A stretch of 64,000 nt of DNA from Takakia lepidozioides. Lineage: Eukaryota; Plantae; Bryophyta. The position numbers were made by a program, and so were the translations under genes. A model generated the notes under the pieces. It saw nothing but the letters and a program-made list of their open reading frames with translations. It was not told where the DNA came from and ran no database searches. Location of the stretch: contig CM060733.1 of assembly GCA_030704615.1 (NCBI GenBank), positions 29,388,001-29,452,000 on the forward strand. The letters run 5' to 3'. Position 1 is the first letter of the stretch, and each line of letters opens with the position of its first letter. Below are positions 7,601 through 62,083 of the stretch, piece by piece.

Positions 7601-7614
7601 GCGACAGCTATAGG

Positions 7615-7742
7615 GAGTTCTAAGTTCCTTGTAAACCCAACCCCCATCGTTGTGCCTTATCACGATGGGCCCGTTCTTGTAGGGACAAATGGAACTCTTA
7701 ACATTTATACCATCTACTACGGTACTTTCACTGCTGCCCAGC
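7615..7742 (+). pseudogene. Phi-1/EXORDIUM-like N-terminal fragment
   Basis: PYHDGPVLVG..TLNIYTIYYGTFTAAQ matches the YHxGxxL...V.LIWYG.F...Q start of the Phi-1 domain. Confidence 0.65.
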
Positions 7743-8166
7743 TAGTACCCCTTATGCACAGCCCACATAATCCTTCTCCCCCAACAAGCCCACTGGCCTG
7801 CTCAACACAAAGCCCAGCGAAGGCCCTCAACGAGAAGACCCCCGGCGCCACTGACACCACGCCCCCGCAGCCTCTCCATACGCCTGGGCCAGTTACCGGA
7901 TCACCACACGTACCTTGCACCTCGCCAGTAGCTTCACTGGCGCGACTCCTCAAGCTTCTCCAACATGCTGCGATTCTGGATGGGCTACTCTTTGTTTGAG
8001 CAGCATGTTGTGGACGCCGAGCTACCACTCATTGAAGAAGAACGCTCCGGATTCGAACTGCAAAGCATTGGCCTCTGGCGACCATCTCTACTATAATAGT
8101 GCTTAAAAACAAAAACATCATATCTAGCTTAGCACTGGAAAACTAGATAGAGTCATCTCTCTCGAG

Positions 8167-8515
8167 TGATAGAAAAGCTAAGTACACACTGTTGACACAA
8201 AACATGACAACCAAAACCATCACTCTTTAGAATAGAAGTCGAGCCAGGGGCACCCCAAGCTGTGGGGACTCCACCCCACAACAACCTACACTCCCATCAT
8301 GAGCACACTCAGTCCTACACGATGAAGGAGCTCGGTCGCGCAGGCTCAACTCGAGAGAGATGAGCCGCGCGACTGCCGCTCTCGTGAAGATAAGACGGGT
8401 CAGGTGTCAAACTAAACTTGACACCTGATTTAACACTTGACCTAAATCCAAGTGTTAAATACAAATAACTAGCTTTATTCTAGCTAGTTTCACACTGTGC
8501 TTATTTAACTTGACA
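8167..8515 (-). repeat. 5' terminal repeat (X-type LTR segment) of copy A
   Basis: TG...CA ends. Shares blocks with 41405-41731 (GGCTCAACTCGAG, CGTGAAGATAA, CTAGCTAGTTTCACACT, AACTTGACA) and contains several hairpins. Confidence 0.85.
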
Positions 8516-19305: not shown

Positions 19306-21744
19306 GAGGTTTGTTATTTCATGAGCATGAGCGGCATGAGCGGAGTAGTAAGACAATCGGTTTTCATGAGCAGAAGTACAAATTTCGAAAATAATAAATA
19401 ATAAAAAACAATAATTTAATGCAATGTGTCAGGAAAAACAAATATATTATTCGGCCCCTTGAAGGGAAAATTGCAGTTTTGACAGTTGTGCTCATGATAT
19501 TTCGTCTTCCGCTCATGCCAATTCCCAGCGACATGTGCAAATATGGCGCCGAATTTCGCGGTAATAGGGTCCGTAACCTGAAAAAACAGAGACGTATTTC
19601 GCGGTAATAGGTCTCTCTGGCGAAAATGGTGCCGAATTCCGCGGCTATAGGTCCCCTCATGACAGGTAATTCGGCGCCATTTTTCAAATGCATGTTCGGA
19701 CTTAGCCAATTTTCGGCGCAAAATAGGGAAATTCGGCGCCATTTTTCCAGACACTGTACCAGTGCATGTTGGGACTTAGCCAGTTTTCGGCCCAAAAAAG
19801 AGAAATTCGGCGCCATTTTTCCAAACACGGTACCAGTGCATGTTGGGACTTAGCCAGTTTTCGGCCCAAAAAAGAGAAATTCGGCGCCATTTTCCCAGAC
19901 ACAGGTACCAGTGCATGTTGGGACTTAGCCAGTTTTCGGCCCCAAAAAGAGAAATTCGGCGCCATTTTTCCAGAAATGACCCCAAACTGCTTCTGTTGGA
20001 TCTCAGTTTGAATGGAATATTGCCTCATTCCAGGAGTTTTGGGGTGCATTTCATTACACTGCAAAAAAAAGTCTGATACAGCAAAATGCAATTGAAAATA
20101 TCCATATGGAGGATTCCCTTTGCCCCATCAATGATTTCTGGAATCCCTAAGGAGGAGTTTGTGCAGCTCGTTCACGCTCAACGCCGGTGCATGAATAAAG
20201 TCATCAATAGTCACGTTCATCCTCAACCTCTTCAGGTAAATGTAATACAGATGATTGCACGGATAATACTTCGAACCCTTCTTTGCTTCCATCAACGAGA
20301 AGTCCGTACAATTGCAAGTCGGCTCCACTCCAATCGTAATTGTGTATACATCGTCGCGTACAGCCGAGCCGGCCGTTGCCATCCGATACACACGCCCAAG
20401 GCCGGGTGGGGGTACGTCCACGGAGCTCTGAATAGTGCAAGCCATCCCAAGAGCATTGGCAATCCGAGTCTCATTCAACTTGTTGGGAGGGTGTCGTCTC
20501 TTCACTCTTCCGAATCGCATTGTGGGATGTGCAGAATTGTCCAATCCGTCTCTACTAGACCGAGCAGTCTGCAATGGCTGGGTCTGAGGAACCGGAAATG
20601 CGTGGGTTGGGATGTCTGTGCGTTGCACCATTCGAAATCCTGATGCAGATAGAGCATCCGCCTCATTCTGAGAGAGGCTGCAACCCGGTGCAACAGGCCA
20701 GACGTCCGGAGGCTCCGGCATTCCCTGAATCCCGTACTTGGGCTTGCCAAATACACAGGTCATTATGTCGTGCCTACAGAACCAAAATGTCTACGTTGTG
20801 GCGTGAGCAAATGTGGGAGTCAAAAATCTGCCGCTGAAACAAGGTGCAGGTACAGCACCGTGTGGGTTCCTCCGAATCATCTCACCACAGCGTGCTCTCG
20901 TATCCACCCGGATGGCGCAGCACTTCCCTCGAAATGCCGGCAATGTCCTCGCAATTCTCCACTGTGACTCCGACACTCTTGTCTCCACAATGGGAATGTT
21001 GTACTGCTTTACTACAGATGGCTCGTTATGTTGCCGGGGCACGCGCCCTGTGCTCAAAGGAGATGACGATCTTGAACGTGCAGGACTTGCGGTGCTCGAC
21101 GAGACCTCCTCGGGCAACATCACCGGACCACGAGGGAGCGTGCGAATATTCTTGTCAACTCGCCATGAATCCTCTTCTCCACCAGGTGCCTCGTCAAGTC
21201 TTCGTCTCACTGGACGGGTATGAACATCTCCTTCCAAATGTTGGCCTCTTCGCAGCAATGGCGTGTCCCGAAGGCCCTCTCGCAAGGCCGCCGCCCACTT
21301 CCGAGGATTCTTCGATCTAGAGGCAGTCCGCATCAGCATTTCCTGCCTGTCCGGCCCCAAGCCCCACTGTTTCCCTTTCAAGAACTCGTTGTACCTGCAT
21401 TGCTGCATAATTGACCTCACAATGTCCTCCGTTGTGGCAGTGAGGATGTCCACCAGATGCGCCGCAGAGGAGGCACGCCAGGAAGAGTGCACTGATTCGG
21501 CCATGTTTGTCGTGGGCATGTCGGTGTCGGAGTCGAGACACATTTCCTGCACAAGCACATGTTGAGGTTACAAGCAAGTTACAAATATGGCCAAGAATAA
21601 TATTCAACGGGACGCGAATTCGTGCAACTCACCTCCCGCATATAGTCGCCGAACTGGAGGAAACGATAATGCCACCATGCTAGCCAACTGACCATTGCTC
21701 CCTCGTCTGATTTCCTTACAGCACCTGACGATGTCCACCAAGCC
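19306..21744 (-). mobile_element. Mutator-like (MULE) element copy 1: terminus and 3' part of transposase with SWIM finger
   Basis: TTNMAESVHSSW (catalytic E region), WLAWWHYR exon, SWIM CNCTDF...PCNHLYY. Terminus GAGGTTTG is followed by 74-75-bp tandem repeats. Confidence 0.75.
19660..19975. repeat. 74-75-bp subterminal tandem repeat (about 4 units; duplicated at ~22110-22425)
   Basis: Unit GGTACCAGTGCATGTTGGGACTTAGCCAGTTTTCGGCCCAAAAAAGAGAAATTCGGCGCCATTTTTCCAGACAC. Confidence 0.9.
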
Positions 21745-23860
21745 GAGGTTTGCTATTTCATGAGCATGAGCGGCATGAGCGGCATGAGCGGAGTAGTAAG
21801 ACAATCGGTTTTCATGAGCAGAAGTACAAATTTCGAAAATAAAAAACAATAAAAAACAATAATTTAATGCAATGTGTCAGGAAAAACAAATATATTATTC
21901 GGCCCCTTGAAGGGAAAATTGCAGTTTTGACAGTTGTGCTCATGATATTTCGTCTTCCGCTCATGCCAGTTCCCAGCGACATGTGCAAATATGGCGCCGA
22001 ATTTCGCGGTAATAGGGTCCGTAACCTGAAAAAACGGAGACGTATTTCGCGGTAATATGTCTCTCTGGCGAAAAATGGTGCCGAATTCCGCGGCTATAGG
22101 TCCCCTCATGACAGGTAATTCGGCGCCATTTTTCCAGTGCATGTTCGGACTTAGCCAGTTTTCGACGCAAAATAGGGAAATTCGGCGCCATTTTTCCAGA
22201 CACGGTACCAGTGCATGTTGGGACTTAGCCAGTTTTCGGCCCAAAAAAGAGAAATTCGGCGCCATTTTTCCAGACACGGTACCAGTGCATGTTGGGACTT
22301 AGCCAGTTTTCGGCCCAAAAAAGAGAAATTCGGCGCCATTTTCCCAGACACAGGTACCAGTGCATGTTGGGACTTCGCTAGTTTTCGGCCCCAAAAAGAA
22401 AAACTCGGCGCCATTTTTCCAGAAATGGCCCCAAACTGCTTCTGTTGGATCTCAGTTTGAATGGAATATTGCCTCATTCCAGGAGTTTTGGGGTGCATTT
22501 CATTACACTGCAAAAAAAAGTCTGATACAGCAAAATGCAATTGAAAATATCCATATGGAGGATTCCCTTTGCCCCATCAATGATTTCTGGAATCCCTAAG
22601 GAGGAGTTTGTGCAGCTCGTTCACGCTCAACGCCGGTGCATGAATAAAGTCATCAATAGTCACGTTCATCCGTAACCTTTTCAGGTAAATGTAATACAGA
22701 TGATTGCACGGATAATACTTCGAACCCTTCTTTGCTTCCATCAACGAGAAGTCCGTACAATTGCAAGTCGGCTCCACTCCAATCGTAATTGTGTATACAT
22801 CGTCGCGTACAGCCGAGCCGGCCGTTGCCATCCGATACACACGCCCAAGGCCGGGTGGGGGTACGTCCACGGAGCTCTGAATAGTGCAAGCCATCCCAAG
22901 AGCATTGGCAATCCGAGTCTCATTCAACTTGTTGGGAGGGTGTCGTCTCTTCACTCTTCCGAATCGCATTGTGGGATGTGCAGAATTGTCCAATCCGTCT
23001 CTACTGGACCGAGCAGTCTGCAATGGCTGGGTCTGAGGAACCGGAAATGCGTGGGCCGGGATGTGAAGGTGCATTTGGCGGGCAAATGAAGTCCCCAACA
23101 GCCCTGTATATGATGTTGTCCGATGGTGGAACTCGCCATTCCCTGCCATCGCCGAAATCATTGTGGAGCACAACAATACTCTCGACAACAAGGCCGTTTG
23201 AGTCCTTCCTTTCCTCCTCCAAAAAAACCGACCCCGGTTTCAGGTGGTATCGAACGCATAGATATTCCTCCATCACCCGGCAGATGTCCCCTCTGCACGG
23301 AAATGAAGCTCTATGCTCGTGAGGAGGGCAGTACACTGTAGCGCTCGGGTTTTCCGCCATGGGAGATGTGCACACAAGACTGCCAGGATGGCGTGCGGGG
23401 AAGCTCCCTGGTAGAAGGGGGATGCAGCGAAGGGAAGGAATGCGGTGCCGATTTGTCCGAGCGACGAAGCCTGATCCAAATCCAGGGAGCCATATCTCAA
23501 AAATCCATAGTCAGAGTGTTAATGAACCTTGTCTCCGGAATGCGGCCCCTGGTCTTTGCACAATAACTGCCAACGGTATGCAGTCAGAAAGTGGGGGGCC
23601 GTCCGGATGATGATGGCTGAAGGGGAGAAGCCGGCACCGTGCCGTCACATTACTACCCCTGAATGGAAATTCGGCACCCAATATCCAACAGGGGCCGCAC
23701 GGATGAAGTCGTCTGGAGCAGAGATGCCGGCACCTGTCCGACAGAGAACATCCCCCGGACGGAAATTCAGCGCCGAATTTCCATTCGGATCCCCCCAAAG
23801 GAAGTCCACCATACAAGCTGCTGCTGCACATCGGACACTGCAGTCTTGTCACTTTTGACT
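21745..23860 (-). mobile_element. MULE copy 2, internally deleted
   Basis: 21745-23064 is nearly identical to 19306-20615 and starts at the same GAGGTTTG terminus, then switches to different sequence with AATTCGGC(A/G)CC motifs. Confidence 0.72.
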
Positions 23861-28450: not shown

Positions 28451-30337
28451 CCCTATTTAGAGTTAGAGGGGCGACGCTTTTGTTTTCTGATGATCATAAC
28501 TCTACCATCTCGGTACACCGTGTAGTGTCCCTGTGCCCGAGCCTGTTTAACTTGCGAGTTGAGCCCGCATGGCATTGTACTGCATGGGGGTCAAATCCTC
28601 ATTCAAATACATGTCGTGGGCTCTAAATTGAGGCCTCTGACGTAGAACCCTCTCCCGAGCACCCTTGTCCCTAAATCTGATGAACAAGACTTTGTGCTAT
28701 GAAGTTCCTGCATGCACAACTCAGCCTTAGATTTGTCTTTCTAAGTTGTGTCTATGACGCCAATTTACTACAACTTCATCTGCATCAATGGGGGGAGCGC
28801 ATAGCACTAACGGAGCTGCCAGTAGGTAGGGATGGAGTCTTTCCATCCAATTCGTGAGTTGAAAATCTGCCTACAGAAGACATTGTCTTTTCCCCAAGAG
28901 TCATTCGAAGGTTGCAAGCAACCGGGTTCTCCTTATATTGTCGCATTTGGGAAGAGCTCATGTCACAAGTACAAACCAGGATTTGCGAGCCTCAGACATT
29001 AGGCCTGAGTGAGCCAAGTACAACACCTTATGTAACACAATGGATAGCATTTTGAAAGACTACTACACACCTCATTTTCCAAATATGCTAGACTACAGTT
29101 CCTCTTAGCGATTCCCAAACTGGACGAGCAAAAAATGTTCCCTTTTCTGATGGTCAGTAGCAAAGAAAGAGTAGATCAGTAGTTTAGATTCGGGGTCTAT
29201 AAAGAATACTAGTCTTTCTCCAAACCGCATCTGCAAAAGTCACTAGGCAATGTTCTATATCTTCTGGAGAATGCAGATTGTAGGTAGTACAATTAGAAGG
29301 AGCATCAGAAAAGAGAGCGCCAACATGAATGATTCTGTTAGCTATCTTCCATCGAAATACATCAATCTTAGATGATCTGTGCTTCTTCCAGATATCTCCC
29401 TAGACAGGTTTCCAAGGGATAGGATGTCCTGGTACAAGAGCCCATTTGTTGGTCCATTTGCGTTCAAAGATCCGCTTTGGCATAGGCAGAATGTAACCCA
29501 GTCTCATTGAATAGCTTAAGACTGGTCATGGTTTTTCCGAATCCATTCTCCAGGGTCAAACTGCAGCAGTCTCAAGGGAGCAGATAGAACCAGTGAAATG
29601 AGCGATTATAGTGACGTAGCTCAGCAGCCGATGGAAGCGGATTCAGTTTACCCGAGATCGAGCAGAATGTTAGATTTATCAAATACAAATATTAATATAA
29701 ACATAATACCTATAGTATGAGCTCTCTCCTAACCATAGAAGACATTCTAAAAACAAATGCCTCATCCCTGAACTCGTCTCTTACATGAAGGTCTAGTACT
29801 GAAGTGGTTGTAACTACCAGTTCACTTATTATTGACTCATTAACCTACTGAATGAACTCATCCTCTAACACTACCACTTAGGTTGTTGGTAAGTGCAGCA
29901 CCATTTAATGTATCACTCAAAGTTGATAATGAGAAGACATCAGTCCAAGTTTAGTCTAGAGGTGATCAATCTCTCAATAGCTATTAACTGGAAATTAATG
30001 TCATGGACATTAATCTTCAAGTAATTCTAAGAGGGTTCCATATGAAAGGACTACCGCTCAAAGTCCGGTGACACATTTCTCATGCTTGAACTTGGTCAAT
30101 GATTTTGTAAATATATCAGCAATATTATTTTCAGTAGTGCAATAATGTAACTTCAGAAATCCTCCCCTGTTGCATTTAAAAATAATAATAATGCGGACAA
30201 CATAATTACGGTAAATTTGAATACCCAAGATATAATGAACCGGACCATTATCAGTCATTCCATAAGTGGATTTTAGCTTATTTTTTGTGTCCAAGAGTAA
30301 ACCAGAATTATCAGAAAATAATAGAGCATCATCCACA

Positions 30338-30526
30338 TGTCGTACGCATACATATCGCTACACAACTACATCGTTGTCCAAAACCACACAACACATGTGC
30401 ACGCCACACACTAGTATATCACTAGTCCATCACTAGTCCAGCCACTAGTCCAACCACTAGGCTACAACTAGTCAGTCACTAGGCTGGCACTATGCTGCCC
30501 ATTATGGCAGTCACTAGTCCACACAA
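30338..30526 (-). repeat. Repeat Y, outer copy (3' terminus of copy B)
   Basis: Near-identical to 30856-31043; rich in CACTAG motifs. Confidence 0.95.
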
Positions 30527-30853
30527 TGATAAAGAAAAAGAATACAAGCACAAGCTCATGCGAGCTCACAAAGCTGAAGCATAAACTCATGCATATATAA
30601 CCTCATCACTCAAATACAAGTCAAGCCAAATGCACCCCACGCCATGGGGAATCCACACTACGACGTCATAGCTAGGCGCGGTGAGGCTCAACTCGAAAAA
30701 GATGAGCCTCCCGCGCTTGCCGTGAAGATAACCACTCCAGGGCCTAAATCTGCCTTGACCCCTAGATTGACACTTGGGCAAATCCCAAATGTCAATATGT
30801 AAAAACTAGCTATTTCCTAGCTAGTTTCACACTAGTGGTAAAATAACTTGACA
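30527..30853 (-). repeat. Repeat X, internal 3' copy
   Basis: 327 bp, about ten substitutions (counted by eye) relative to 41405-41731. Confidence 0.95.
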
Positions 30854-30855
30854 GT

Positions 30856-31043
30856 TGTCGTGCGCATACATATCGCTACACAACTACATCGTTGTCCAAA
30901 ACCACACAACACATGTGCACGCCACACACTAGTATATCACTAGTCCATCACTAGTCCATCACTAGTCCAACCACTAGGCTACAACTAGTCAGTCACTAGG
31001 CTGCCACTATGCTGCCCATTATGGCAGTCACTAGTCCACACAA
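30856..31043 (-). repeat. Repeat Y, inner copy, directly downstream of a polypurine tract
   Basis: Near-identical to 30338-30526. The minus strand reads AGGGGGGCGA (31044-31053) then TTGTGTGG. Confidence 0.95.
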
Positions 31044-31302
31044 TCGCCCCCCTAGCTGGTGCTTAGGTCCCTCTAAGTCCAGGTAGCCACAAGATGTGAT
31101 AGTGACCATAGCCTCACTAAGTCTTCCACCACTATCCCTACTACACTCAAACTCGATAGATCAAGAGGCCGGGTGCAAGAGTTGCCCCATCGTTAGTCGC
31201 CGTCTTGCAACCTATGAACTTGAGCTTGGGATCTCATGTATTAACTCCTATGAGCTTGGCCTCCCATGTCTTGTTAGCTGCCTCCAGTCATGTCCATTGC
31301 CA

Positions 31303-31446
31303 CTATCCCAAGTAGTGTGGACACAACCAATCTCCGTCAGGAACCTTCTCAAGAGGTGGAGTTAAGCATCCCATATGCCAACCCCTTGAGCATCGATCAC
31401 ACGCCAGCATGGTGGCTGCCCCTTTGGCAAACCCACAGAGCATGCA
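31303..31446 (-). pseudogene. PHD finger at the integrase C-terminus
   Basis: Manual translation: CMLCGFAKGAATMLACDRCSRGWHMGCLTPPLEKVPDGDWLCPHY*. This is a C4HC3 pattern with the last Cys changed to Tyr; it is not in the ORF track. Confidence 0.9.
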
Positions 31447-31544
31447 CCTCAAACCTGCAGGTGCCACTGCCAAGTTTGGGTCAACTCTGCCATCGACATT
31501 GGGAAGATGACATGGCGCACAATTACGAACATGGTCCTTTTAAG

Positions 31545-33491
31545 TCATGCCATCCGACCCTCCAAGATCAGGACCCCTGAGGGCAACACCTCTCGAACCC
31601 TCAGAATAACACGCCCTGCAGTAACATCCAGAGTCGTAGGAGCAGTCTGCTGCAAATAAACATAGTCACCAGGGCTAAACCTCCGAACCCCAGGACGATA
31701 TCCTCCACCACGTATAGTGGCATACCTCAACGTATCACGGTGCTGTGCAATGGCAAGGTTATCAAAAGCCATGGGCATGACTTTCTTGAACAACTTTGCA
31801 CGCTGATCACATGCACGTACCGACACGTCCGGATCGTCAAGGTTAAGGACTTGAGCAGTGTCCCTACGAATGGCTGCAGGCAAATCCGGCTCTCAGCCAA
31901 ATAGAAGGAAATATGGTGAGAAGGAGGCAAGTGATGCTTGTTTGCTGAACCTGTAGCCCATGGCTAACCAATGAACCTGAAGATCCCAATCTCCTAGGTG
32001 TCCCTTCTGCAAGCCATACTTGCGCAAACCCCTCTTCACCGTCTGAACAACTCTCTCTGCTAAGCCATCGGCCTCAGGATGATCCCGAGAAGTGGTGCGG
32101 TGGTTTATCAAGGCTTTATCACACAAAGCCTGAAACTCCCCCAAGAACTCTCTCCCTTGGTCCATGAGTACCTCAGCTGGAGCACCAAATCGGCTAAGTA
32201 CACGATCCAAGAATGCATACGTAGCCCCCTCACTAGCCTTGTCAGGCAATGGAACCAACTCAATCCACTTGGAGAAGTGCTCCACCATCACCAACACATA
32301 TCTGTGGTGGCGCATAGTCAGTGGCAACGGTCCTGCGAAGTCAAGACTCCACCTGTAGCCCAATCCCATGATTGGTAAAGGATGCAACTGTGGTGTAGGG
32401 GTGTTGAATGAAGCACGCACCCTGTCACACACCATGCACCTAGCCACGAACTGTTGCACCTCTCTATGCATACCACGCCACCAATACTGCCCTTGCAGTA
32501 AACTGTGAGTACGTCGCACTCCAAAATGCCCCAACTCCTCATGGGCATGCCGCACTAACCGTGCACGCTGTGTGGGGTGAGGCACAATCCTCACCCGACC
32601 ATCCTCCCACACTCGAAGTAGGTGTATCCCCTCCCACTTGAACCTCTTGGCTCGTTGCAGGATCCGATCCCTCTCCCTGGCAGTCACAATGGCTGCCGTG
32701 TCTCCCGTGCGGAGGTAGTCCAACACAGCCGAATCCTCATGTATATCTCTGGCACCACCTGGCTCATCACTAGCCTCAGGGTCCTCAGACACTCCGTCTA
32801 CAGTCATCCCTGTTGTAGGTCCAACCTGACCTCCCGATGCCAAGATACACAAAAATGCAGATGCGTGCCATCCCGGCACCATCTCCTCGTCCGTCTCACC
32901 ATGCCACCGAGCTCCAGTGTCATCTTGCTGGCTCATGCATGGATTGCGACTCAATCCATCCGCATCTCGATTGACCAAACCCAGTCGATGCACAACCTGA
33001 AAGTCATACTCCTGGAGTATGAGCGCCCACCGTGCAAGCTTCCCCGTAAGCTTGTCTGACTCCATCAACCACTTGAGTGGCTGGTGATCTGTGACAAGGG
33101 TGAAAAGATTGTTGTATAGATAGCACCTGAAGTGTGCCACGGCCCACACTGCAGCTAAGCACTCTCCCTCATATGAGCTGTACTTAGCCTCTACAGCGTT
33201 GTTTGAGCGGCTAGCATAAGCCACTACGAACTCTTCTCCCTCATCATCCACCTGTGTGAGCACCGCTCCAAGCCCCAGCATGCTCCAATCCGTATGCAGC
33301 TGAAAGGGACGCCCCCTGATAGGTCGTCTCAGGATAGGTGCCGAGGTCAACCTCGCCTTGAGCTCTTGAAAAGCTCGTTCCTGCTCATCTTCCCACTGCC
33401 ACTCCTGGTCCACCTTGGTCAGCTTGGTTAGAGCCTTTGCAATGGTACTAAATCCCTTGACAAACCGTCTATAATAGTTTGCCAACCCCAT
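31545..33491 (-). CDS. RT connection, RNase H and DDE integrase of copy B
   Basis: GLANYYRRFVKGFS, LHTDWS, YEGECLA, TDHQPL, NRDADGLSR, H-H-C-C finger (HEELGH...CMVC), WSLDFAGPLP, DQGREF, DGLAERVVQ, FSPGDYVYL. Confidence 0.95.
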
Positions 33492-34300
33492 GAAAGCTCG
33501 AACTCAGCTCACATCCGTGGGGCGTGGAATTTGTGCAATGGCCTCTACCTTAGTCTGCTATACCCCCAATCCTCCTGGATATATCATGTGACCTAGATGC
33601 TCAATCTGGTTGTGGAAAAACTTGCACTTCCCCGGATGCAACTTCAATCCGTGCGCTCTCAAGCGCTCCAATACCACCTGAAGGTGTCTCTCATGCTCCT
33701 CCATCGTAACACTAAAGATGATGATGTCATCTATGTAGCACCGAGCAAAGTCCACCCCTGCTAGAATCCTATCCATGACTCTCTGAAACTCTGCAGGAGC
33801 ATTCTTAAGCCCAAATGGTAAGAACCGCCACTGATATAGGCAATCATTGCCATGCTCATTGATCCCCTAGAATGCCGTCTTCTGCTTGTCCGCCTCTTTG
33901 ATTGGCAACTGGTGATATCCGGATCATAAATCCAAAGTGCTAAAGACCTTAGCATGCCCGATGGCATCAAAGATCTCCTCTGGTGTTGGCATGACATACT
34001 TATCGGACTTGGTCTGACAATTTACAGGCCGGTAATCACCGCACATACGTCTCTCTGTCCAATTGCCATAGACATCCTTCTTGGCTGGCATCACTGTGGC
34101 TGAAGCATACTCTCCACCAGAGAGCTCCACCAAACCTGCCTCCCAGAGATCTTGAGTCCTCATCTGAATCAAAGACCTCTCCATGTCACTGTATCTATAG
34201 GGTCTCCGAAAGATTGGCGTGTCAGTGGCCAACTCAATATGGATCTCTTGACCCTTCAGTGCTCCCAAGTCCTTCAAACTGAAGGCAAAGCAATTCCTGT
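33492..34300 (-). pseudogene. Gypsy reverse transcriptase of copy B (nonsense mutations)
   Basis: RMCGDYRPVN, FSTLDL, LPFGLKNAP, CYIDDIIIFS, LKLHPGKCKF, with in-frame stops. Confidence 0.93.
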
Positions 34301-34739
34301 AAGCCCTTAGGAACCGCCGTATATGTCGTCTCTCTCCTCCGGTGACAATGGGTCCAATGTCAGGCTCCCAATTGTCCTCCGTAACTGCAACCTTAAGTCC
34401 AGTGGGCTTAGAGGTAGAGGACGCGTCCAGTGGTTGCTATGTTGCAACCTCTTGAGCAGTACTCCCTACCTGCTCAGTCAGTGACAAGGCCTCATCCTGC
34501 CCCATCATCTCATCCTCAAGGACTTCCTCCACCCGAGAAAAATCCCCAACCTCATCTTTCATCGCCACCTTGGCTGCCAACTCCCTCTGAACCTCGAGCA
34601 CCTCCCACGTGTGCCATGGATACATGCACCCCGTGGTCCTCACATGCTCGCCCCCACTCACTGCCTGTACCGTCTCGGTAGGCAGAGAGACCATCGAGGG
34701 AAGTGTACTCCGCACTCTGCGTTGCTCAGCCATAGCCAA

Positions 34740-35700
34740 GCTAATAATCCAGGTCAAGCAATTGAGATCCATTGCTTGCCCCAACACTTGACGACGTGAT
34801 GCCTCAGAAAGAGACGACACCGCCGTGGTACCAGTGGTAAAAACCCATTGCCCGCTCACGCTCGTCAGCATTAGGCTCCACTAACTGCTGCAACTGAGCA
34901 TCCACAGGAGGCCAGGTCCACTATCCCGGAAAGCATGCGATCCTGGGAAGCTGAGCAGTGTAGATAATGTTGCTCGTGGTTGACCCACCTTGTTGACCAC
35001 TGCCAAAGGCAAACGGTCATCGTGTCTCACACGCTGAGACTGCCTCACTGTGTCCAGAATGCTATCCACTGTGAGATGTGCTGGCCACTGCACCCCATCA
35101 AATGCACGCTTGAGCAGTGCGGGTGGCATCAAGTTAGTCCACCATAGTCGTGGACGATGAGCCCGTGACCCCACTGTAGCTGCACCTAGCAACACTGCTG
35201 ACCCAAGCCACGACCGGACTTGATGCACACTAGCCATCAGCCTGGCCCGAGAATCGCCCATCAGTGGCACATTCTCCAAGATGTATGCTGGAGATACAGC
35301 TTGATGAAGCTGCAAGTGGCGCAAAACCCGCACCATCTCCCAAAACAGACCCGACCTCGAGTCTCGCAATCCATTGCCATGCCCGGCTGATGAATGCCCT
35401 TGGCAGGGCCAACCTGCCACTACCAGATCAATGGAGCCAACCCGCTCCAAATCCTGCGCCCCTTGTAAAGAAATGTCTGTTGGCAAGGCCTGCTGATATC
35501 CACGAATTGCAGACACCGACAACAACTCAGGGTACCGCTGCACCAACTAAGCAACATGGCGAAGTGAAATGCGTCGTGCAGTCTCATCCCTCTCCACATA
35601 CAGATAACGCGGAACTCGTACACCTGCCTGTAATACAGCAGCCAATCCGGTGCTGATCCCGCCAAACAAGTCCAGAAGACAAATGCCTTCATCCGGATAC
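34740..35700 (-). pseudogene. DNMT3-like C5 cytosine methyltransferase domain of copy B
   Basis: LLDLFGGISTGL, IDLVVAGWPCQGHS, LFWEMVRVL, YILENV, AHRPRLWWTNL, RRQVLGQAMD. Confidence 0.93.
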
Positions 35701-35992
35701 TGCCACACAATAGGTGTGGTATCCAATGGAGACAACTGAGGTGGTCCTGGTGCAATCCCCGCACTCTCCTCCTCTCCTGACGGTACAAAAGCCTCCACAG
35801 CTTGTTGAACCCGTCGATCAGCATCCCGCTGCAAATCCTTGCTTGTGCCCCACAATGGAGTCTGAGCAACCATGGTAGGCAACTCCGCCATACCATACAT
35901 GTCATCCTCCTCTCCCGGAGGTGGCACATCCTCTGAATAAGCGTTGCCCTCAAACAACTCTCTAGGCGAACTCACTGTCGCTGTGAATGCTG

Positions 35993-38623
35993 CTATGTCG
36001 GCATCTTGCCTCGCTGGGCAACCGCAACTCCTCCTATGAACGTCACAGGGAGCTGCACACGCCGGCCCTCCCCTGACTGCCATGCAGGCCTATAGGAAGC
36101 TGACTCCTCCCAAAAATCCAGGGTGAAGCCCATGGGGTACAACACTGCCCTACCAACCAGGACATCGTATGAGACCGCGTCTGTCACAATGGCCTTGGCT
36201 CGCATCACTGAGCCATCTGTAGGGTGATCCGGCCGTAGTCTGATAGCCAACTCACGCCGTGTCATGCCCGAGCCTGCTCCAATCCTCCCAGAGACGTCTG
36301 TATCTGGAAAGGACAAGGCTCCATATCCGCCTCTGTGAGGCCCAAGCCTGCAATAGCAGCTCTGCCCAGCATCAATGGCTGAGCTCTCAAGTCCAACAAG
36401 ACCCGCAGTGGCCGGTACCTCTTGCCTGCCAGTCCACTCAAACAGAAAATGCCATCCTGGTTGTCTAACATGACAACTCCAGGTGTCACCATGGCGCGCT
36501 CAATGGCTGGCCTAGCTGGCAGCTCCATCAACCTGGCAGCTGCAGCTTGCCATGGCGCCACCGTAGCAGTCTTGACTCTCAAATCCGAGGATCCCTCCGG
36601 CACTACACCTCCCACTATCTCCGCAGAAGATGAAGTAACCTCCCCACTCTCACAAAGTGTAGCTGCCAGCCTGAACACCTCAGCTGGTCTTACCCCCGGC
36701 GTCGCAATCATGGTAGCCGAGAACAATGGAGCCTGGCACACAGATGTGGCCACTCCTAGCAGCACACTAGCTGCCGTAGCCTTGGCAACACTAGGTAGTG
36801 GTGCTACCAGTGTAGCTCTCCCCAATGGCATAGTAACCTCCGCCTTGGTAACAGTCGGGCGAGAACTAGGTGCTATGGATGGCGTCGACACTGTCTCCGC
36901 CAATGTGAATGACTGAGGAAGCCTAGCCCGACGGCTTTGCCTCCCCACGCTGTGGATCAACTCCACCTCTGCACCTCGTGGCTCAGAACTCGTGCTGCTC
37001 CTCGAGTCACACGGCTGCAGCAGACTCCACCTGCAACTAGTGGTAGTGCTTCTCCACACATGAATCGCCATGCCTCCCATATCTCCTCCCTCAGGAGCAG
37101 GAGGTGGACCATCCGGCCTAGAGCCTTACCACCAGAGCTGTAGCCATGGCAGGCGAGCCTCTCTGCTCTAGCTGCTGAGCCGGTTGGCCATGCCTTTGTC
37201 AACACCTGACCTCCGCGTCCTTGGCCATGTTGAGGCTTGCCCCTTGGCCTGCACCTTGTGTGACTGGCCACCCTCGTCCTCTTTGGGCTGCTCCACTCGC
37301 CCCGGCCACCATTGTTCCCTGGAACTGGCCTGGGCGCAACACAAGATGCAAACCATAACACTGGGCCTCTCCATGCCCGTGCTTGCCACAATGCCCACAT
37401 GCTTTTAACTGTGCAGGTTGTGCATGTGCTGGCCCTTTGCTCGCGCTCTGGGCAATCCTTCTTGACATGGGGTCCTCCACATGTCCAGCACACCACATCC
37501 GCCCGTTGTTGGCCGGCAAATGAAGGGAGAGACCCCTGCATCTGAGGTCCTTTCTGCCCTTCCCTGAGCTTCACCTGAGCCCCCTTGTTGCCTTGAGCAC
37601 GTTGAGGTAGTGGTTGGCTAGGAGCACCACCCCCCGTGGTGTCTCTTTAGCAAATCCCACCATGACCACTCGTTCCTCACCATATTGAGCTCTATCCGCT
37701 TTGCCAGCAAAAACACATTTGCTAAGGTGGGTTGGGCGCTTGGGATTGTAGAGAGAGTTGCATCCCGCACCCTTCTCCTCAGCTCCTTGTCAATATCCCA
37801 TACCAGAATTGGACTGCCTGAGCTTCCGTAACCCCTTGGGTTACATTTATCAAGCGCCTCATGCGAGTGAAAGCCTCCCTCAAGCTCTCGGTCGGCTTCC
37901 GTTGGAACTCTTGCAAGCTCCGCAACTTCTCTGTCCTCACCCCTTGGTAGTTCCCTCTCAACTCTTCGAAGAACTCCACAACAGGGTTGAAGGCAGGCAC
38001 GGGTACTAGTGCTGGTGCGGTAGTGGCTTGGGTGACGTCGTAGCTACTGTACCACCAGTCCCACTAGTCCCACTGCTACTTGCTGAAGCTGCCGGTGCAG
38101 CGGCAGGTGTAGCCACTGCCCTCGTGGCTCTAGTGCCCCTAGTGATGGAGACATAGTCGGGTGACCAGTACATCCTCCACTCCTCGATCTCAACCTCATG
38201 CCCCCGCCTGAACTCATGGTAATCATCCATAGGCGGCCCCTCAAGGTGCTGAAACAGCCCCTTCCATGCCATGAAAGGCGTAAATAGTTGTGGATTGCGC
38301 ATTTGCTGCAAATCACACCAACTATCAAACTCTTGGATAAAATCATCCAACTCGATGGTGCCCACCGCCCCAGAGTACCTTCGTGGCCCCTTGGTAGCTC
38401 CATACATCTCCTCCATTGTGTCCCACAACAATGGCAAAGAAACAACTTGCACCGCCGGTATGAGTCCTCCTGATTCACAATCCGAATCAGAACCTTCCGT
38501 AGAAGACACAGGAGGTGAAGGTGGCCTAAACCGCACACCTCGTCTCGTGTACCCACTAGTATCGCTAGTGCTCGAACCGGCACTGTCCCCAGCAACTAGT
38601 GGCACCTCCGTGTTGACACTCAA
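35993..38623 (-). pseudogene. Gag, zinc knuckles and protease of copy B (many frameshifts)
   Basis: Collinear with copy A: YSGAVGTIELDDFIQEFDSW, CWTCGGPHVKKDC, CGHCGKHGHGEAQC, VLLDLRAQPLML. Confidence 0.88.
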
Positions 38624-38899
38624 CCGGTCATGAACATGTCCCTAACCCCCTCTCCACAAGGTAACCGGGTAGAGAACCTGTTGCGGCTTATGGTTTGGAA
38701 TACTAAGTTCCTAACATAGCCTACACCTGTATTTGCATGACCATTGGATATCAGTGATTACTCCTCAAACCGCCCTCCACGAGCTTCAAAATTTGGCCTT
38801 CAAGACCACATGCCAGTCCTTAGGCAGTCCACCAGTGCCTCCAGATCAGCACAGGCCCGTCCACAGGTCAACACGGGCCACCACATACCAGCACAGGCC

Positions 38900-39880
38900 C
38901 ACACAGCTCACTGGTCACAGCCGTCAGCCCCAACAGGCCACTGGGCTTAGCCGTCACAGCCCGCCGCAGCCTGTTTACAGCCCTCGACAGCTCGTCACGC
39001 CCCCGCAGCCTGTTTTACAGCCCTCACAGCTCGTCACAGCTCGCCACAGCCTTCCACAGCCCATCACAGCCTCACAGGCCACATGGCATAGCCTGTCATA
39101 GCCCCCAATACTCACACATCCTGTAACAGCCCCGTCACAGCCCCACAGGCCCAGGCACAGCCTCTCATAGCCCCTCACAGCCGTCACAGCTTGCCACAGC
39201 CCGTCACAGTCCCACAGGCCACAAGGCGCAGCCTGTCACAGCCCGTCACAGCCCCATAGGCCATAGGGCATAGCTGTCACAGCCCCTCACAGCCCGTCAC
39301 AGCCCCATGGCCACTGGGCTTAGCCTTCACAGCCCTCACAGCCGTCACAGCTCGCCACAGCCTGTCACAGCCCCACAGCCACGGGCACAACTTGTCACAA
39401 CCCGCCACAGCCTGTCACAGCCCACACAGCCCGTCACAGCCCCACAGGCCACTGGGCATAGCATGTCACAGCCCATCACAGCCCCACAGGCCACAGGGCA
39501 CAGCCTGTCACAGCCCCTTATAGCCCGTCACAGCCCCACACCACGGGGCACAGCTGTCAAGCCCCTCACAGCCCGTCACAACCCCACAGGCCATTGGGCA
39601 CAGCCTGCACAGCCTATCACAGCCCCTCACAGCCCCAAAGGCCTCAGGCATGGCCTACACAGCCCCTCACAGCCCCTCACAGCCCCAAGGCCTCAGGCAC
39701 GGCCTGTCACAGCCCCTCACAGCCCATCACAGCCCCAAAGGCCACGGGCCCAGCCTGTCACAGCCTCTCACAGCCCGTCACAGCCCCAAAGCCAAGGGCG
39801 CAGCCCATCACAGCCCGTCACAGCCCCAAAAGGCCACCGGCATAGCCCCTCACAGCCCGTCACAGCCCCATCCATGGCCG
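38900..39880. repeat. ~1-kb degenerate minisatellite (TCACAGCCC core) in the leader of copy B
   Basis: Dozens of CACAGCC units in short higher-order blocks. Confidence 0.92.
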
Positions 39881-41404
39881 CTCTGGCAGTTTAGCCATTT
39901 CTCCAAGGGGTTTAGCCACGCTAAGCTAGGGTTTGTGTCTCTTGGACTCTAGGCTTCTTTCCACCGAGCTATGGCGGCTGTGAGGAAATCAGCAAGGTAT
40001 TCTTGCTCTTTCGGCTCCCACACACCACCATAGTAGCCCTAAGCCATGAGGTGGTTGCCACAAACCAAGCCTTCTTTTCTCAATGGCAAACAACCAAAGC
40101 CCTGCTGGTTCCCAGCCCTTGTGAGCACTCATTCAAGCACTCTCCTTGGCCATAGCATCTGTCTTAGAGCCTATTCCAGCCCCCTACACTTGCTGCTTCA
40201 AGAGTTGCGCTCCCTTCAAGCTTGAAGTTGAAACCCCAACTCTTATAGGCCCTACAAGTGCTTTTCTTTCACTCCAAGTGGAAACCAGCCCTAGACCTTC
40301 CGTTCTAGCTCTCTAAAGCTGAAAACAAGAGCCTCAATGGGCTGAAGGCATGCTCCACACATGCCCCACTCTCACCATAAGAGAATCAGCTCCTTTGCTT
40401 CATTTCTTGCACCCACAAACCTGAAAATACAAGCTTCAGCAGGTTGAAAGCATGCTCCACATGCCCTACAGGGAAACCAGCCCCTTCCTTCCTTTCTTGC
40501 ACTCCACACCCGAAAGTGCAAGCCTTCACCAGGCTGATAGTATGCTCCACACATGCATTGCCCTCACATAAGGGAAGTCAGCCCTTCCCTCTTCCTTGCT
40601 TGCCCTCCAAGCTTGAAGATGAAAGCTTCAATGAGCTTAATACATGCTCCACACATGCAACCTCTTCACACAAGAGATATCAGCCCCCTATCTTGGCTCC
40701 TTGGCTCCTTGATGCTCTCTAAGACAAGACTAAGCACTCCATAGCCCTTGCCAAGCTGAAACCCTAAGGCTTACATTTCCAGCCACAAGACACTCATCTT
40801 GTGGTGCAAGAACTTTTCTTCCAAACTCTGAAACCCTAGGTACACATTCCATGGCCTTGCCGCACCTCTTAGCTCCTGTTCCAGCCCCGCTCTTGCCATG
40901 GCAAGAGCCCTCATACCGCTGGAGTTTCAGATTGAAACCCCCAACTCAACATAGCCACAAATGCATTGGCTTGCATACAAGAGAAATCAGCCATCTCTCT
41001 TCACTCATACCTCCTTATGAGCTTGAAGTTGGAGCTCCCGATAACTGTGACTTACATCTAACACCCTCGCAGCTCCACTTTGCTGCAGCTCCTTAACTTG
41101 GCCTGCAGCTGAAGAAGACGACCACCCGTTCACCCACTCGAGACCAGCATCTCCCCCGCTTCACACTAGAAGCCCAAACTTGGTTGCCATAGCGTTGAGC
41201 TATGCAACGCCGCTCTTCAACATAGGCTACCCGCCTCTCTATCTATTGCAAACCTGCAACCTGTTCGCCTTTGCACTCTATCTACTTTGGATAGGCTCAT
41301 GCACGGATCCCTGCACTCTAGGCTAAACCGCTTCTCATGAAAACACAAGTGCTACAAAACAACTCGAACCTGGCACTCACAGACTTGAGCTGATCTTTCT
41401 CGAG

Positions 41405-41731
41405 TGATAACGAAGAAGAATACAAGCACAAGCTCATGCGAGCTCACAAAGCTGAAGCATAAACTCATGCATATATAACCTCATCACTCAAATACAAGTC
41501 AAGCCAAGTGCACCCCACGCCATGGGGAATCCACACTACGGCGCCATAGCTAGGCGCGGTGAGGCTCAACTCGAGAAAGATGAGCCTCCCGCGCTTGCCG
41601 TGAAGATAACCACTCCAGGGCCTAAATTTGCCTTGACCCCTGGATTGACACTTGGGCCAATCCCAAATGTCAATATGTAAAAGCTAGCTATTTCCTAGCT
41701 AGTTTCACACTAGTGGTAAAATAACTTGACA
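41405..41731 (-). repeat. Repeat X, 5' terminus of copy B
   Basis: Minus strand reads TGTCAAG...TTATCA, followed by the PBS-position sequence CTCGAGAAAGAT. Confidence 0.95.
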
Positions 41732-43815
41732 CACATACAAAGCGATAATGGTAATGAAACGGTTGAAACGATTAATGTACACATTAGAGTCGGATGAACT
41801 AGGAATCCAACACCATGAAGGTCAGTGTCAATGGGCTCATACCACACTTGAGGAGCTTGTTTAAGGCCATGAAGGCTACGGAGCAACTGATACACATTTG
41901 TTTCGTGGCCAGGTTTAACAAAGCCTTCAGGTTGAGACATATATATAGAGAGAGAGAAGACTCCGGCCGAAGCCGGCGTAACTAAGAGCCACTTTGCCCT
42001 ATGGCTACTATCCCCTTTCGGGGGTGGTTGAGACATATATAGTACTATGCAAAGTAAATTACTATGCAAAAAAGTTGTCTTAACATCCATTTGATGGACC
42101 TCCCAGTTATGGACCGCAACCAAGGCTAACAAAGTATGAATTGAAGTTATCTTAACAACACGAGAAAATGTGTCTTGATAATCAACCCCTATCACTTGAG
42201 AATAGCCCTTGGGCATAAGATGTGCATTATACCGTTCAACGATGCCATTGGCTTTAAGTTTAATTTTAAACAACCATTTGCAACAAATGGGCTTACGGCC
42301 TACCGGCAATGCAACTAAGTCCCAAGTATGATTCTTGATGAGAGAGTCATATTCAGAGGTGATCGCCGCTTGCCAATATTGAGAGTCAGATCGAGAGTTG
42401 ATGGTCTCTTGATAAGACAAAGGCTCTGTCAAATTAGGGACACTCTAATGATAATTAGGATATTTAGGATTAGGCTTGAGTTTCCTACCGTATCGAGAGG
42501 TAGAGGATGTAGGAGTAAGTTTATCAAAGGTAAACCCAAAAAAGTCAAGTCCGGGAAATGCTCCCACAACATCAGCCCCACTGGTTGACTTGGAAGGGAG
42601 AATTGTACCTCTGCAATAGGGGTCATCGTCATGATCAGAATAAAATAATGGATTATTAACCAGAGATTGGTGGGAAGGCGTGGAGACTAGAAACTAATGA
42701 CCAGAGGAGGGAGACCTGGAAGAGGTTGGGGAACATTAGGAACGTGTGGATGTGGAACCATAAGAGGGACAACATTATTATATAGGGGCCCCACCACAAA
42801 CTTATCAAGTTCTGAAGTAGGTGGTATAACCTCAGAGCATCCCCACTCTACGCCTCTATGGACCCTGCACCCGTACTTCTCGTATGTAGGTTCAGATTCG
42901 CCTCCAAACGTACCACACCTTTGCCCCACTACCGTATACGCCGTTAAGGGCGGACACTGAACCGCCTCTCTTTCACTGAATACGTGCACAATATTCAGTC
43001 TCCTACATCCGTTCTTGAACCGAGTCGTCCCGACCATGGATATGTCAGAACGCACCGCCCAGCCTCTCCCGCGTTGGTAGTGAAGGTAGGCGGTGGGTCT
43101 CGAACGTGATATGAGAACATCACTGGAAACTCCAACAAGGCGGGAACATAGGATGCAGGGGCGTAACGAGGGGCAAAGGTGTGGCTACAGGCAGCCAACC
43201 CCTTCATACACCTTTCGAGAGTCCTAAACCAACCCCTTCACAATAGCTATAGAGGGGCCATTTCAGTGAGAAGGGTGGGGATGCTCTCATGTACAACTGC
43301 TGTAACACGTTTTTCTCCGAAAAGAGTGGTGGTTTCGGAGGAACGAAGAAGCGGGGCGCAAAAGAGCTTTTAGACTTGCACATGGCGCTTCCAAGCTCTG
43401 CCCGGGCACTAACGTTCCCACACCAAAATGCCCTCAGAGCCTTTTGAGGCTTCATTTTCCAACCCATCAAGAGCAAGGCATGCCATTACCTAGAAATTGC
43501 ATAATAAAAAGCAAGGAGTCAATTCGTCAACCCTGGTCCATATTGGATTTCGGTGCCCCCTTGGTTTTAAGGGTGCCGAATGTAGGAAAGCTCAATTCCT
43601 GTTCAGTCGTTTTGTAAATCTTCTTGAAAAATTACATCATGACTAAAAATGGTTGTCTTAGCTTAAATGTCATAAAGCCGATAATCTTTGGTAGATTCGC
43701 CATATCCCAAGAAGCCACATTGATGGGTTTTACTATCCCAATTTTTCTATGCTCCTTAAGAAGATGAGCATAAGCATAGCATCTAATATTCTCAAATGAG
43801 ATATAAAAGGCTTAA

Positions 43816-50600: not shown

Positions 50601-53452
50601 AGCCAAGAGAAGAAAAATGAGAGGAAAAAGCATCAACATGAGGCCAGAGCTCCTATGGAGCCTAGAAGCAAGTAGTCTCTACCACTCTCTCTCTTTTCCC
50701 TCCCTCCTTGCCAGTTCCCAGACACCTCTGCCCCAACCTGCCATCAACTACATGAGGATTTCATTTTTAGGAGGGAGCTCATGTTGTGACGTTCTACACT
50801 CCTAATACCTTACCTGGAAGGGCATACAGGCAGTCCCCAGTTTCAGTGGCCTCGGCTGCAGTGGCATTGCTAGCCAGTGCCAGAAAGACCAAATCAGTGC
50901 AGCTTTGCAGCACTGTTGGGTCCAGAATGGAACCCCCCAATGAGGCACCAGCAGCATATGTGGCATCCAAGACACCTTTCCGGCATGTGTCACATGAATT
51001 GATGGCCTGCTTGCAAGCCATCTCAATGCCCAAGAAATTGATGCCTTGTTTGTTAACAACTCGAATAAGCTCTTCCTTGGTCGAGATACCATAACAACCA
51101 CGCGTGGACACTTGGAAGATTTCCTCTGATGAAATATTGCATGCCTGGAAGCTCAATTGAGAGAGCTTAAGGTCTCTCATGCTGGTCTCAAGGTTTTTAA
51201 TACATCTGGCCCCTTGTCTGTTGGAAACTACAAAGGCACCAGAGGTGGAAGCCATTTGTGTGATACCAACTCTGAGAGCCAGTAGACCTGAAGAGCAGCA
51301 AGCATACAGGTCTCCACTCGATGTATTGCATGCGGTTGCTACATTCTGAACTTGCCATGGGGGAAGTTCAAAGGGGCACTCTGCAAGGATAGAACATTTC
51401 GCACTGTGAAAATCAAGAACTGTGGATAGGATGCCCTCATCAGTGTAAGTATTTGCCATGCGAAGATGTCCTTGTGCCATTGTGTGCCCCACAGGATACA
51501 GGCCAACCGTACGGAACAGTCATTGCTCCCCTACACCCGAAAAAGTCTGTTTCGCAAGATTGAGGCTTATCTTAATAGCTTCTAACACAACTTTCCAAGT
51601 TTTTAGTGGTAGTACTGTAGCAGGAGACGTGGTTCCATTAAGCAAAGTTCAGAGTCAGAGTATCATGGATGTCTTCCCCCCTATAATCCAACTTGTTGTG
51701 ATAGGGAAGGACAAGATGAGATGCTCTTCGGTTTCAATCCCTGTCATCTCTACCGCAAACTGGGATCAAGAGGTCAGCACACTCCCGGTTGTCCCATCTA
51801 CGAGTCTCTATCCGTAGGCTGTGTGAGAAAAAAAGAACAAATTGCTAATGAGAGCAAGGAGAGATGATGGAAAGTGCACGACAGGTGAGGAGTAGCCCAA
51901 GAAGTACTAATGCATGTGCTAGAGCAGGAGTGTGCACTAACCACTTTGCTGTTGCAACGGAGTTTGAAGCTGGAAGAAGCAGTTGGCTCTCTGCATGGCG
52001 TAATCTGAGTCTCCGAGACTAGCCACTGACAGAAAGGCTGCGTATGCACATGATTTCCATGTGCTTAGATCTCCCCCCACACCTAGCAAGCTGCTTAGAA
52101 ATCTCTGATTTGCATCCAAGCACTTGCCACATGAGGCTCCTGTCAGATTTTGACTGGCACATGACAAAACTACACTGTCAAATCCAGGACCCCTGGAGAT
52201 GGCTGAAACTGTAGTGAAGTTTTTGCAAGGTGAATCAGGGCCGACTCCAGCTCTTAGACCACAGAAAGTGGAGACATTTGCTTGGATGCTGTTGGCTTGC
52301 AGGGTGCTGTTCAAGTAAAGCTTGCAGGGTTCAGTGATATCAGGAGAGAGACCAAGATTGTTGGTTGTGTTGGAATATTGCGAAATGGCTACAGCCACAA
52401 GTGCCTTCAGGTGGCTACAGCAGCTTCCATAGTTGGGTCTCGTGCATGCTGATGTAGCCTCTGTGAAGTCCAAGCCACTGAAATCAAGCGGACAGGCTGC
52501 AAAGAGATCGAGAAACAGCTCAGTTTATGGAAATAACATACACCAAGAGAGGTCTGATCGATACATGCGTTGCATTTCACTGACATTCTGCAGGAGCACT
52601 CGAACATACTGACACGAGACTCCCTCCAACCAACAACCATCAAGGAATTAAGATGTAGGATCTGTGTTCTTGACAGATCCAGTAATTGCATCCAAACAAT
52701 GTATTGGAAGTCAAATTGTGTTGACAAAAAGTGTGAGTGAAACTTTCAGGCATGACCCTGCTTGTAAATTTTTGAGTATTTTGTGCTTAATCTTCAAAGG
52801 CCTTAATCTATGTACGTTTCATGCCGAGCTCTCCAGTCGCACATTACCTTCACGAGGGGGGCTCTACGTTAGTGCAACGTGAGATTTCCTGGCTTACCCG
52901 TGGACGTCATGAAGTTCGTTTCTTTCTTTTTTTACCCTCTGGAATGCGACTTAAATGATGAGAACGCCATATCTCTTCCAGTCCATCAGAGCCTTATGAT
53001 TTTGGTGTTGGAGATCCCATTAGGAACCTTTTCTTATTCCAGAGGCCCTCGGGTTCCAGTGAACGCAGTGCAACTTCTTTCCTCTGCTCCCATAATTCGG
53101 GTAACGATGATGCCCCCTGTTGTCCTCCTTCCCACCTTCCCCTTACCTTACGTTTCACTCTGAGTTATCTTTGTGATCTATTCCCACAAGAATGTATGGA
53201 AAATGGTAAGCATGCCAACATAGTCTCATGGGCTTCCCCCCTCATCCCTGAAGCCTCCCCCAGATAATCACCAGGAGGATCAACGAGCCTAGACAAGAAC
53301 TACAACACAACAGAGTGTCATGTGATGATCTTACCTGACGGAAGCCCATTTGTTATGTAACTCCAGACACAGAGCAGCGTGAACCATATGCCCAGCGCCC
53401 CTCTGTGCCGTCCCATCACTGCCGGCGATGCACCCGTCAGTTCAAATTGCAT
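47611..53452 (-). CDS. Receptor-like Ser/Thr kinase with two SPARK-like ectodomains (At1g49730-like), 11 exons
   Basis: Exons 53452-53335, 52496-51942, 51380-50814, 50431-50126, 49881-49620, 49486-49434, 49308-49241, 49007-48918, 48826-48742, 48567-48314, 47934-47611. All introns are GT-AG and phase-compatible. Signal peptide, CPLDF/CPFEL Cys-rich domains, TM helix, [30 protein letters not shown]. Confidence 0.93.
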
Positions 53453-61999: not shown

Positions 62000-62083
62000 T
62001 GCTGGCTGTGGGGTTTGAACCCACGCGTGCTGAAGCACAGGCGATCTTAAGTCGCCCCCCTTAGACCACTCGGGCAAGCCAGC
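62000..62083 (-). tRNA. tRNA-Leu(UAA)
   Basis: Acceptor stem GCTGGCT/AGCCAGC, D-arm GAGTGGTCTAAG, anticodon arm GGCGA-CTTAAGA-TCGCC, long variable arm, GGTTCAAACC T-loop. Confidence 0.95.

Follow-up and report, generated by a model that had tools for sequence, protein, structure and literature searches.

Probable self-priming of Gypsy-type retrotransposons with split repeats, and a possible hairpin lock on the spare primer

Among the retrotransposons of Takakia lepidozioides is a Gypsy-type element with split repeats (layout X-internal-Y-X-Y) that probably primes reverse transcription in Tf1-like fashion with the first ~12 bases of its own RNA, may lock the spare primer copy in a hairpin and probably inserts through a palindrome. 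We found it in a stretch of 64,000 nucleotides (GenBank assembly GCA_030704615.1, contig CM060733.1, positions 29,388,001 to 29,452,000, forward strand), termed the window. Judged from sequence comparison, the component of this scheme that appears highly probable is Tf1-like self-priming without a tRNA, which the original prediction had proposed. It is supported because the primer-binding sites (PBSs) of five families each track their own partner and all lack an initial TGG, and because a transcript is predicted to start at the partner. Self-priming itself is already known; what is added here is a test across five families, the rejection of a loop pseudoknot, a reading of the hairpin as a primer lock, a count of junction indels and an unexplained asymmetry.

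The element, here called B, occupies 41731-30338 on the minus strand and is flanked by a 4-bp target duplication (41732..41735 and 30334..30337). It starts with TGTC, the left integrated end, in repeat X1 (41405..41731, 327 bp), and finishes with GACA, the right integrated end, in repeat Y2 (30338..30526; 97.9% identical to Y1). Internally, repeat Y1 (30856..31043), immediately preceded by the polypurine tract (PPT, 31044..31053), meets X2 (30527..30853; 96.9% identical to X1) at the junction GACA-nn-TGTC (30850..30859, 2-nt spacer at 30854-30855), and X2 joins Y2 at the PBS edge and PPT edge. Because B interrupts the YVDD motif of a Copia reverse transcriptase (RT) whose halves lie in its two flanks (41732-42444 and 30061-30337), its boundaries are fixed independently. 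A broken gag-pol (31306..38641, minus strand) contains gag, a stretch that looks protease-like by eye, a C5 DNA methyltransferase ahead of the RT (34884-35546; PF00145, E 4e-13 in a profile search), RT, RNase H and an integrase with rve and H2C2 matches (31896-33503), and a PHD finger after the integrase (31306-31539; E 1e-10). No chromodomain was found at E 0.05 in 31306-31892 of this broken copy. The 2.7-kb leader of B carries degenerate tandem arrays at 38900-39870, with 10-nt-based units, and at 40280-40690.

A second element, A, also on the minus strand, has its repeat X1 at 8167..8515 and its 3' end outside the window. Between its PBS and gag, in a leader whose extent we infer to be 5700-8150, lie host-gene fragments with similarity to an FMN-dependent dehydrogenase (6750-7211, E 3e-25), PAS (6113-6844) and, weakly, Phi_1 (7553-7996), which are possibly captured pieces of transcripts. 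The segment 7103-7741 resembles TruA pseudouridine synthase by eye and has no Pfam match.

On the coding (minus) strand of both elements, the PBS opens at the first base past the repeat end TATCA, and its partner sits ~150 nt inside X. In B, the PBS (41393..41404), flush with the end of X1, is the exact reverse complement of a 12-nt partner (41570..41581) that is the predicted self-primer and would place the transcript start at or near 41581; in A, the exact match extends over 14 nt (PBS 8153..8166, partner 8350..8363). This complementarity had been described before and was confirmed in both copies, and a match of that length (12 nt for B, 14 nt for A) never arose in 20,000 shuffled versions of X. 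Under a looser rule, with real inverted repeats counted in, 12-nt matches arise at 0.43% of sampled window positions. The sole difference between A and B within the 12-mer is compensated in both PBS and partner, just as had been noticed. X2, the 3' X copy of B, also has the hairpin described below and retains the partner with one mismatch (30692-30703).

A family survey yielded 78 + 7 loci from the best 80 of at least 486 confirmed stretches, and with them four further families, F2-F5, besides the window's own family, F1. The methyltransferase gave tblastn matches in F2, F3 and F4 loci as well. Of 25 5' X copies in F1-F3, four were left out as the same insertions as others (L037, L049, L045 and L068, equal to L038, L048, L022 and L065) and one, L042, as its partner is deleted. 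The remaining 20 independent copies formed on average 10.7 of 12 Watson-Crick pairs between PBS and partner, with at least 10 in 17 copies and 8-9 in three, compared with 3.9-5.5 pairs for partners combined with PBSs of other families and 3.5-5.9 for slid registers. One locus, L078, shows a two-base compensatory change at positions 13-14. F4 (L079, L006) has its own PBS-partner pair of 12-15 nt, in which differences between the two loci are compensated; F5 (L081) likewise has its own PBS, paired over 12 nt. The complementarity is maintained beyond A and B: five families have five different PBS sequences, each matched by its own partner.

A mature tRNA 3' end requires a PBS that starts with TGG, and none of the five families has one. 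That a host tRNA, a tRNA half or another small RNA primes synthesis, with the complementarity being incidental, is very improbable, given that five unrelated PBSs each follow their own partner and that no shuffle reproduced the match. The sole tRNA gene that ARAGORN located in the window, a tRNA-Leu(TAA) at 62000-62083 on the minus strand, matches the PBS over only 4 nt, and the same program detected no tRNA genes in 39 family loci.

Where transcription would start is suggested by promoter spacing. In F3, the 12-nt pairing opens at T|A, 31-32 nt after the start of the TATA box, in 14 of 14 copies, which is likely the Tf1 arrangement, with the partner at the RNA 5' end. In F4, the partner follows TATA-like motifs by 29 nt. 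F1 has no consensus TATA box; a conserved TTATCTTCAC common to A and B stands at that position (41600..41609 in B, minus strand; 28 and 32 nt upstream in the two elements), the TATA-like motifs of F1 and F2 having been picked after the sequences had been seen. In Tf1, it is the first 11 RNA bases that pair with the PBS, and they are released by an RNase H cut directly behind them (PMC7175516). Against simple self-priming stands the length of the complementarity in F2 (16-20 nt) and in a common F1 variant, 41392 G>C (16 nt; 34,940 of 79,029 of summed contig depth), which exceeds what a start at TATA+30 provides; these cases may have a longer primer or a fold-back step that lengthens the match. 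In the F2 locus L038 (1900-2030), we observed by eye a second copy of the 3' part of the primer in the downstream half of X, which possibly pairs across the repeat end and PBS as a competing fold.

The predicted start is straddled in B by a bulged GC-rich hairpin (41554..41594, minus strand; upstream arm 41594-41581, downstream arm 41568-41554) and in A by a related one (8335..8373) with the same inner 6 bp. As originally described, the outer stem differs between the two elements and stays paired, and both hairpins were borne out (z = -6.0 in B and -3.8 in A relative to dinucleotide shuffles). The partner had been placed in the loop; this needed correction, since 1 of its 12 nt in B, and 3 of its 14 in A, belong to the upstream arm. 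Start-straddling hairpins occur in three of the five families: compared with mononucleotide shuffles they are strong in F1 and F4 (z -3.3 to -5.5) and weak in F2 (z 0.0 to -2.3), and none was found in F3 or F5 (F5 z +1.5). In F2 (L028, L038) and F4 (3/3), the upstream arm has a sequence like that of the first PBS bases and pairs with the primer in a 12-bp stem. Several further strong hairpins lie in the upstream half of X (41630-41731 in B, 8400-8515 in A), kept in position between A and B with different sequences; under the proposed start they would fall outside the RNA 5' end.

Folding of RNAs with different starts was predicted with programs that consider nested structures only, pseudoknots being outside their model. 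For B, the predicted probability of pairing between primer and PBS was 0.67-0.70 for RNA starts at 41581-41585 and at most 0.02 for starts at 41588 or further upstream; with a shorter leader it dropped to 0.06. For A, it was 0.67-0.75 at every start, with no flip. When the RNA starts at the primer, the downstream arm pairs in the minimum free energy structures of A and B with an internal GGCTYGA (GGCTTGA at 41499..41505 in B, minus strand), and 10 of 13 copies reach a primer:PBS probability of at least 0.7. Adding 40 upstream bases abolished this helix in only 6 of 13 copies. A stem at the repeat end is predicted in A and B (P 0.78-0.82) and not in F2/F3, again with nested folding only.

These data bear on what the hairpin does. 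In the loop-PBS pseudoknot of the original prediction, the RNA would start upstream of the hairpin and the loop would present the primer to the PBS. The strong F1 hairpin, with an outer stem that varies between A and B yet remains paired, favors such a structure, and complementarity reaching the upstream arm in A, in the common F1 variant and in F2 would fit a start slightly upstream of the 12-mer. Against this, F3 and F5 have no such hairpin, the partner extends into the arm, and a loop cannot present a primer that, as in F2 and F4, sits inside the 12-bp stem. A 12-bp helix on a closed 12-nt loop would moreover exceed one A-form turn and is sterically implausible, and we reject the pseudoknot as very improbable. 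The other proposal, a conformational switch, survives in a changed form, in which the hairpin and the primer:PBS helix of B are alternatives set by the presence of the upstream arm; it does not extend to A. A true switch, with RNAs started upstream folding the hairpin (primer locked, RNA translated) and RNAs started at the primer or refolded by a Gag chaperone priming themselves, is unlikely: the B prediction does flip between starts at 41585 and 41588, and both A and B offer the downstream arm another internal sequence to pair with, but nothing points to a second start site, the flip is not seen in A, and F3 and F5 do without the hairpin.

It is also unlikely that self-priming is right and the hairpin is a by-product at the DNA level or a promoter feature with no role in RNA. 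A plus-strand 3' copy of the PBS could fold back on the partner and be extended, lengthening the complementarity; Tf1 cDNA is reported to retain a single-stranded PBS copy (PMC11042837), and the further hairpins of X upstream of the predicted start would be in keeping with this route. One locus, L002 (3361-3878), also has X2 directly followed by a PBS copy that passes into the first half of X in inverted orientation, with GACA at its end, resembling the PBS overhang reported on Tf1 cDNA (PMC11042837). This inverted copy is, however, 93.3% identical to its own X2 and up to 96.6% to others, so that identity is not diagnostic; we did not accept L002 as proof of a copied primer, and it may be a fold-back product or an assembly chimera. 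The compensated outer stems of A and B likewise argue against a by-product, as they suggest that the hairpin is under selection, be it as RNA or as DNA.

For the hairpin we lean, without quite reaching even odds, toward a model-based reading in which it locks the spare primer copy at the RNA 3' end. This reading arises because the 3' X copy is transcribed with both arms, while a start at the primer omits the upstream arm.

The split repeats carry a second set of signals, at their junctions. The Y1|X2 spacer was 2 nt long in all 22 copies (12 GC, 4 GT, 4 AC, 1 AT and 1 AA); GC predominates in the window's family, giving the palindrome GACA-GC-TGTC, the halves of which are the integrated ends. 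In F1, F2 and F3, the X2|Y2 junction joins the PBS edge to the PPT edge. Scored by eye in 19 independent copies, this junction was exact in 11, while the other 8 showed 1-2-nt indels, an 18-nt filler in L009 or loss of most of Y2 in L024; L002, L012, L034 and L080 were not counted, and for L066 and L071, which have short end duplications, the X end was adjusted manually (by 5 and 17 nt). Set against a spacer length altered in 0 of 22 copies at the palindrome (Fisher p = 0.0008), these alterations point to end-joining. X|Y indels are not listed for the window's own family, for which contigs were used, where rare variants drop out. Of 11 independent two-ended elements, 9 have an exact 4-bp duplication, one has a mismatched one and one has none (L048, missing its X start, was left out), and 23 contigs from one sequencing run lead into unlike flanks at each of the two palindrome half-ends. 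In 16 of 17 comparisons, the X or Y pair of one element was more alike than the mean of comparisons with other elements, a pattern that recopying in each cycle would produce. If the cDNA ends are those set by PBS and PPT, copying would yield Y-X-internal-Y-X. Owing to the junction, spacer, duplication and recopying results taken together, the old ends are likely joined and the palindrome likely opened, and we therefore consider palindrome-directed integration with end-joining of the old ends a probable route.

A symmetric two-LTR circle predicts the mirror product X-Y-X-internal-Y in half of insertions, yet none of 20 intact 5' ends was preceded by Y (p ~1e-6, assembly bias ignored). This absence does not fit a plain circle. 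IS3-family circle junctions carry a palindromic CA-nn-TG that is cut by a DDE enzyme. A spacer drawn from target DNA, as in IS3 circles, was rejected, as GC and the products of C-to-T changes on one strand or the other account for 21 of the 22. Nor did we accept X-internal-Y forms as products of one-LTR circles: since L045, which has Y only, and L022 (Y-X-Y) lie between the same flanks, at least one of the two must reflect loss after insertion or a collapse in the assembly.

The cycle that we propose would begin with transcription inside X1 at the partner, as the TATA spacing of relatives suggests, omitting the upstream arm of the hairpin. The free 5' end, complementary to the PBS and predicted to pair with it, would serve as primer after RNase H cleavage behind the last paired base, a step taken from Tf1. 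The 3' X copy would be transcribed with both arms, and in F1, F2 and F4 the predicted hairpin would keep it off the PBS. Ordinary LTR-type copying would then yield Y-X-internal-Y-X with ends at the PPT and PBS edges. These ends would be joined, and the integrase would open the internal GACA-GC-TGTC, before or after that joining, and insert there; for this last step, the integrated ends and the 4-bp duplication are observed. Still more tentatively, one may picture a green-plant and algal Gypsy lineage in which the integrase sites left the ends of the reverse transcript for a palindrome inside the element, the old ends are end-joined in every cycle, the upstream one of two identical palindromes is always opened, self-priming arose independently of Tf1 chromoviruses, and a PBS-mimicking, start-straddling hairpin locks the spare primer in one subclade.

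Self-priming has been reported for Tf1/sushi elements, for Tcn1 of mosses and club-mosses and for TAR Copia elements (PMC6317226, PMC4600332). Tf1/sushi elements are recognized by a PBS of at least 10 nt complementary to the 5' repeat and 0-5 nt after the repeat end (PMC6317226); B and A show 12 and 14 nt at offset 0. With Tf1/Tf2 of Schizosaccharomyces pombe and Tf1/sushi elements, they share a PBS flush with the repeat end, the Gypsy domain order and a ~12-nt segment of the 5' repeat, complementary to the PBS, at the predicted start (PMC7175516, PMC6317226). Unlike these, B has a PHD finger and no chromodomain match at the integrase end, a DNA methyltransferase in pol and split repeats, and start-straddling hairpins occur in three of the five families. 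The third duplex of the three-duplex Tf1 pretzel (bioRxiv 2022.12.06.519325) was not found here by nested folding, with no signal above shuffled leaders in any of 13 copies (best 4/40). As no chromodomain match was obtained, we do not class the element as a member of Tf1/sushi. The TAR/Houba lineage is likewise predicted to self-prime in plants but belongs to the Copia superfamily with an unrelated domain order (PMC6317226). The non-chromovirus Phygy/Selgy elements have a tRNA-Trp or tRNA-Ala PBS, no extra domain and, in Phygy, an NCGN target (PMC6317226); they were ruled out by a PBS lacking TGG, the PHD finger and methyltransferase, and differing target sites.

The closest described layout is that of KnitGypsy-Dnmt3 from Klebsormidium nitens, which like B combines Gypsy domains, a cytosine methyltransferase in pol and DIRS-like A-coding-B-A-B repeats (PMC5890265). 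In its accessible text, that article describes neither how the element primes or integrates nor any target duplication, its main text does not contain 'PHD', and three of its supplements do not mention KnitGypsy. A Klebsormidium RT-methyltransferase-integrase protein, P0032, which may not be KnitGypsy-Dnmt3 itself, is 51% identical to B. In a quick tree with a long-branch outgroup and no Tf1/Tcn1 reference, and with the badly extracted rows L017 and L030 ignored, both fall into a group of 27 rows with 99% SH-aLRT support. Named relatives come from Coleochaete, Klebsormidium, Closterium and chlorophyte algae, and no relatives were found among viral contigs. L079-L084 are relatives within prokaryotic bins (Synechococcales, Mollicutes, Halanaerobiaceae, Minisyncoccia), likely a result of binning contamination. 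A PHD-bearing Gypsy element is active in Chlamydomonas (PMC9940879). The second DIRS type, the split-direct-repeat tyrosine recombinase elements, has the same layout, A1-internal-B1-A2-B2 (PMC8969392). DIRS elements lack target duplications, whereas the elements described here encode a DDE integrase and mostly have exact 4-bp duplications. The integrase of foamy virus, also a DDE enzyme, cleaves the palindromic junction of two-LTR circles (PMC1180852). It shares with our elements the CA-nn-TG junction, but there the junction is formed by the joined cDNA ends, while here the palindrome is inherited internally and the joined reverse-transcript ends remain inside the element. The literature searched, which did not extend to subscription papers, theses or Repbase, yielded no description of the combined system.

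For Gypsy elements with DIRS-like split repeats, self-priming would supply the missing priming step. As the priming site fixes the ends of the reverse transcript, these ends lie inside the integrated element, and a DDE integrase would thus routinely use an internal palindrome, which bears on the old question of whether two-LTR circles are real integration intermediates. A hairpin lock would offer an answer to a problem that every self-primed element may face, namely how the 3' primer copy is kept off the PBS. Elements of this layout are likely mis-bounded by LTR-finding pipelines that use TG..CA pairs and a tRNA PBS.

The window has no Rfam match. The region 50794-52524 contains two SPARK-domain reading frames, which suggest a green plant as host. 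Two direct repeats of 1.3 kb (19306-20615 and 21745-23064) are 97.5% identical, and a short tandem array lies inside each. Four 79-nt copies lie at 14445-15003, at least one pair of which forms a 40-nt inverted repeat.
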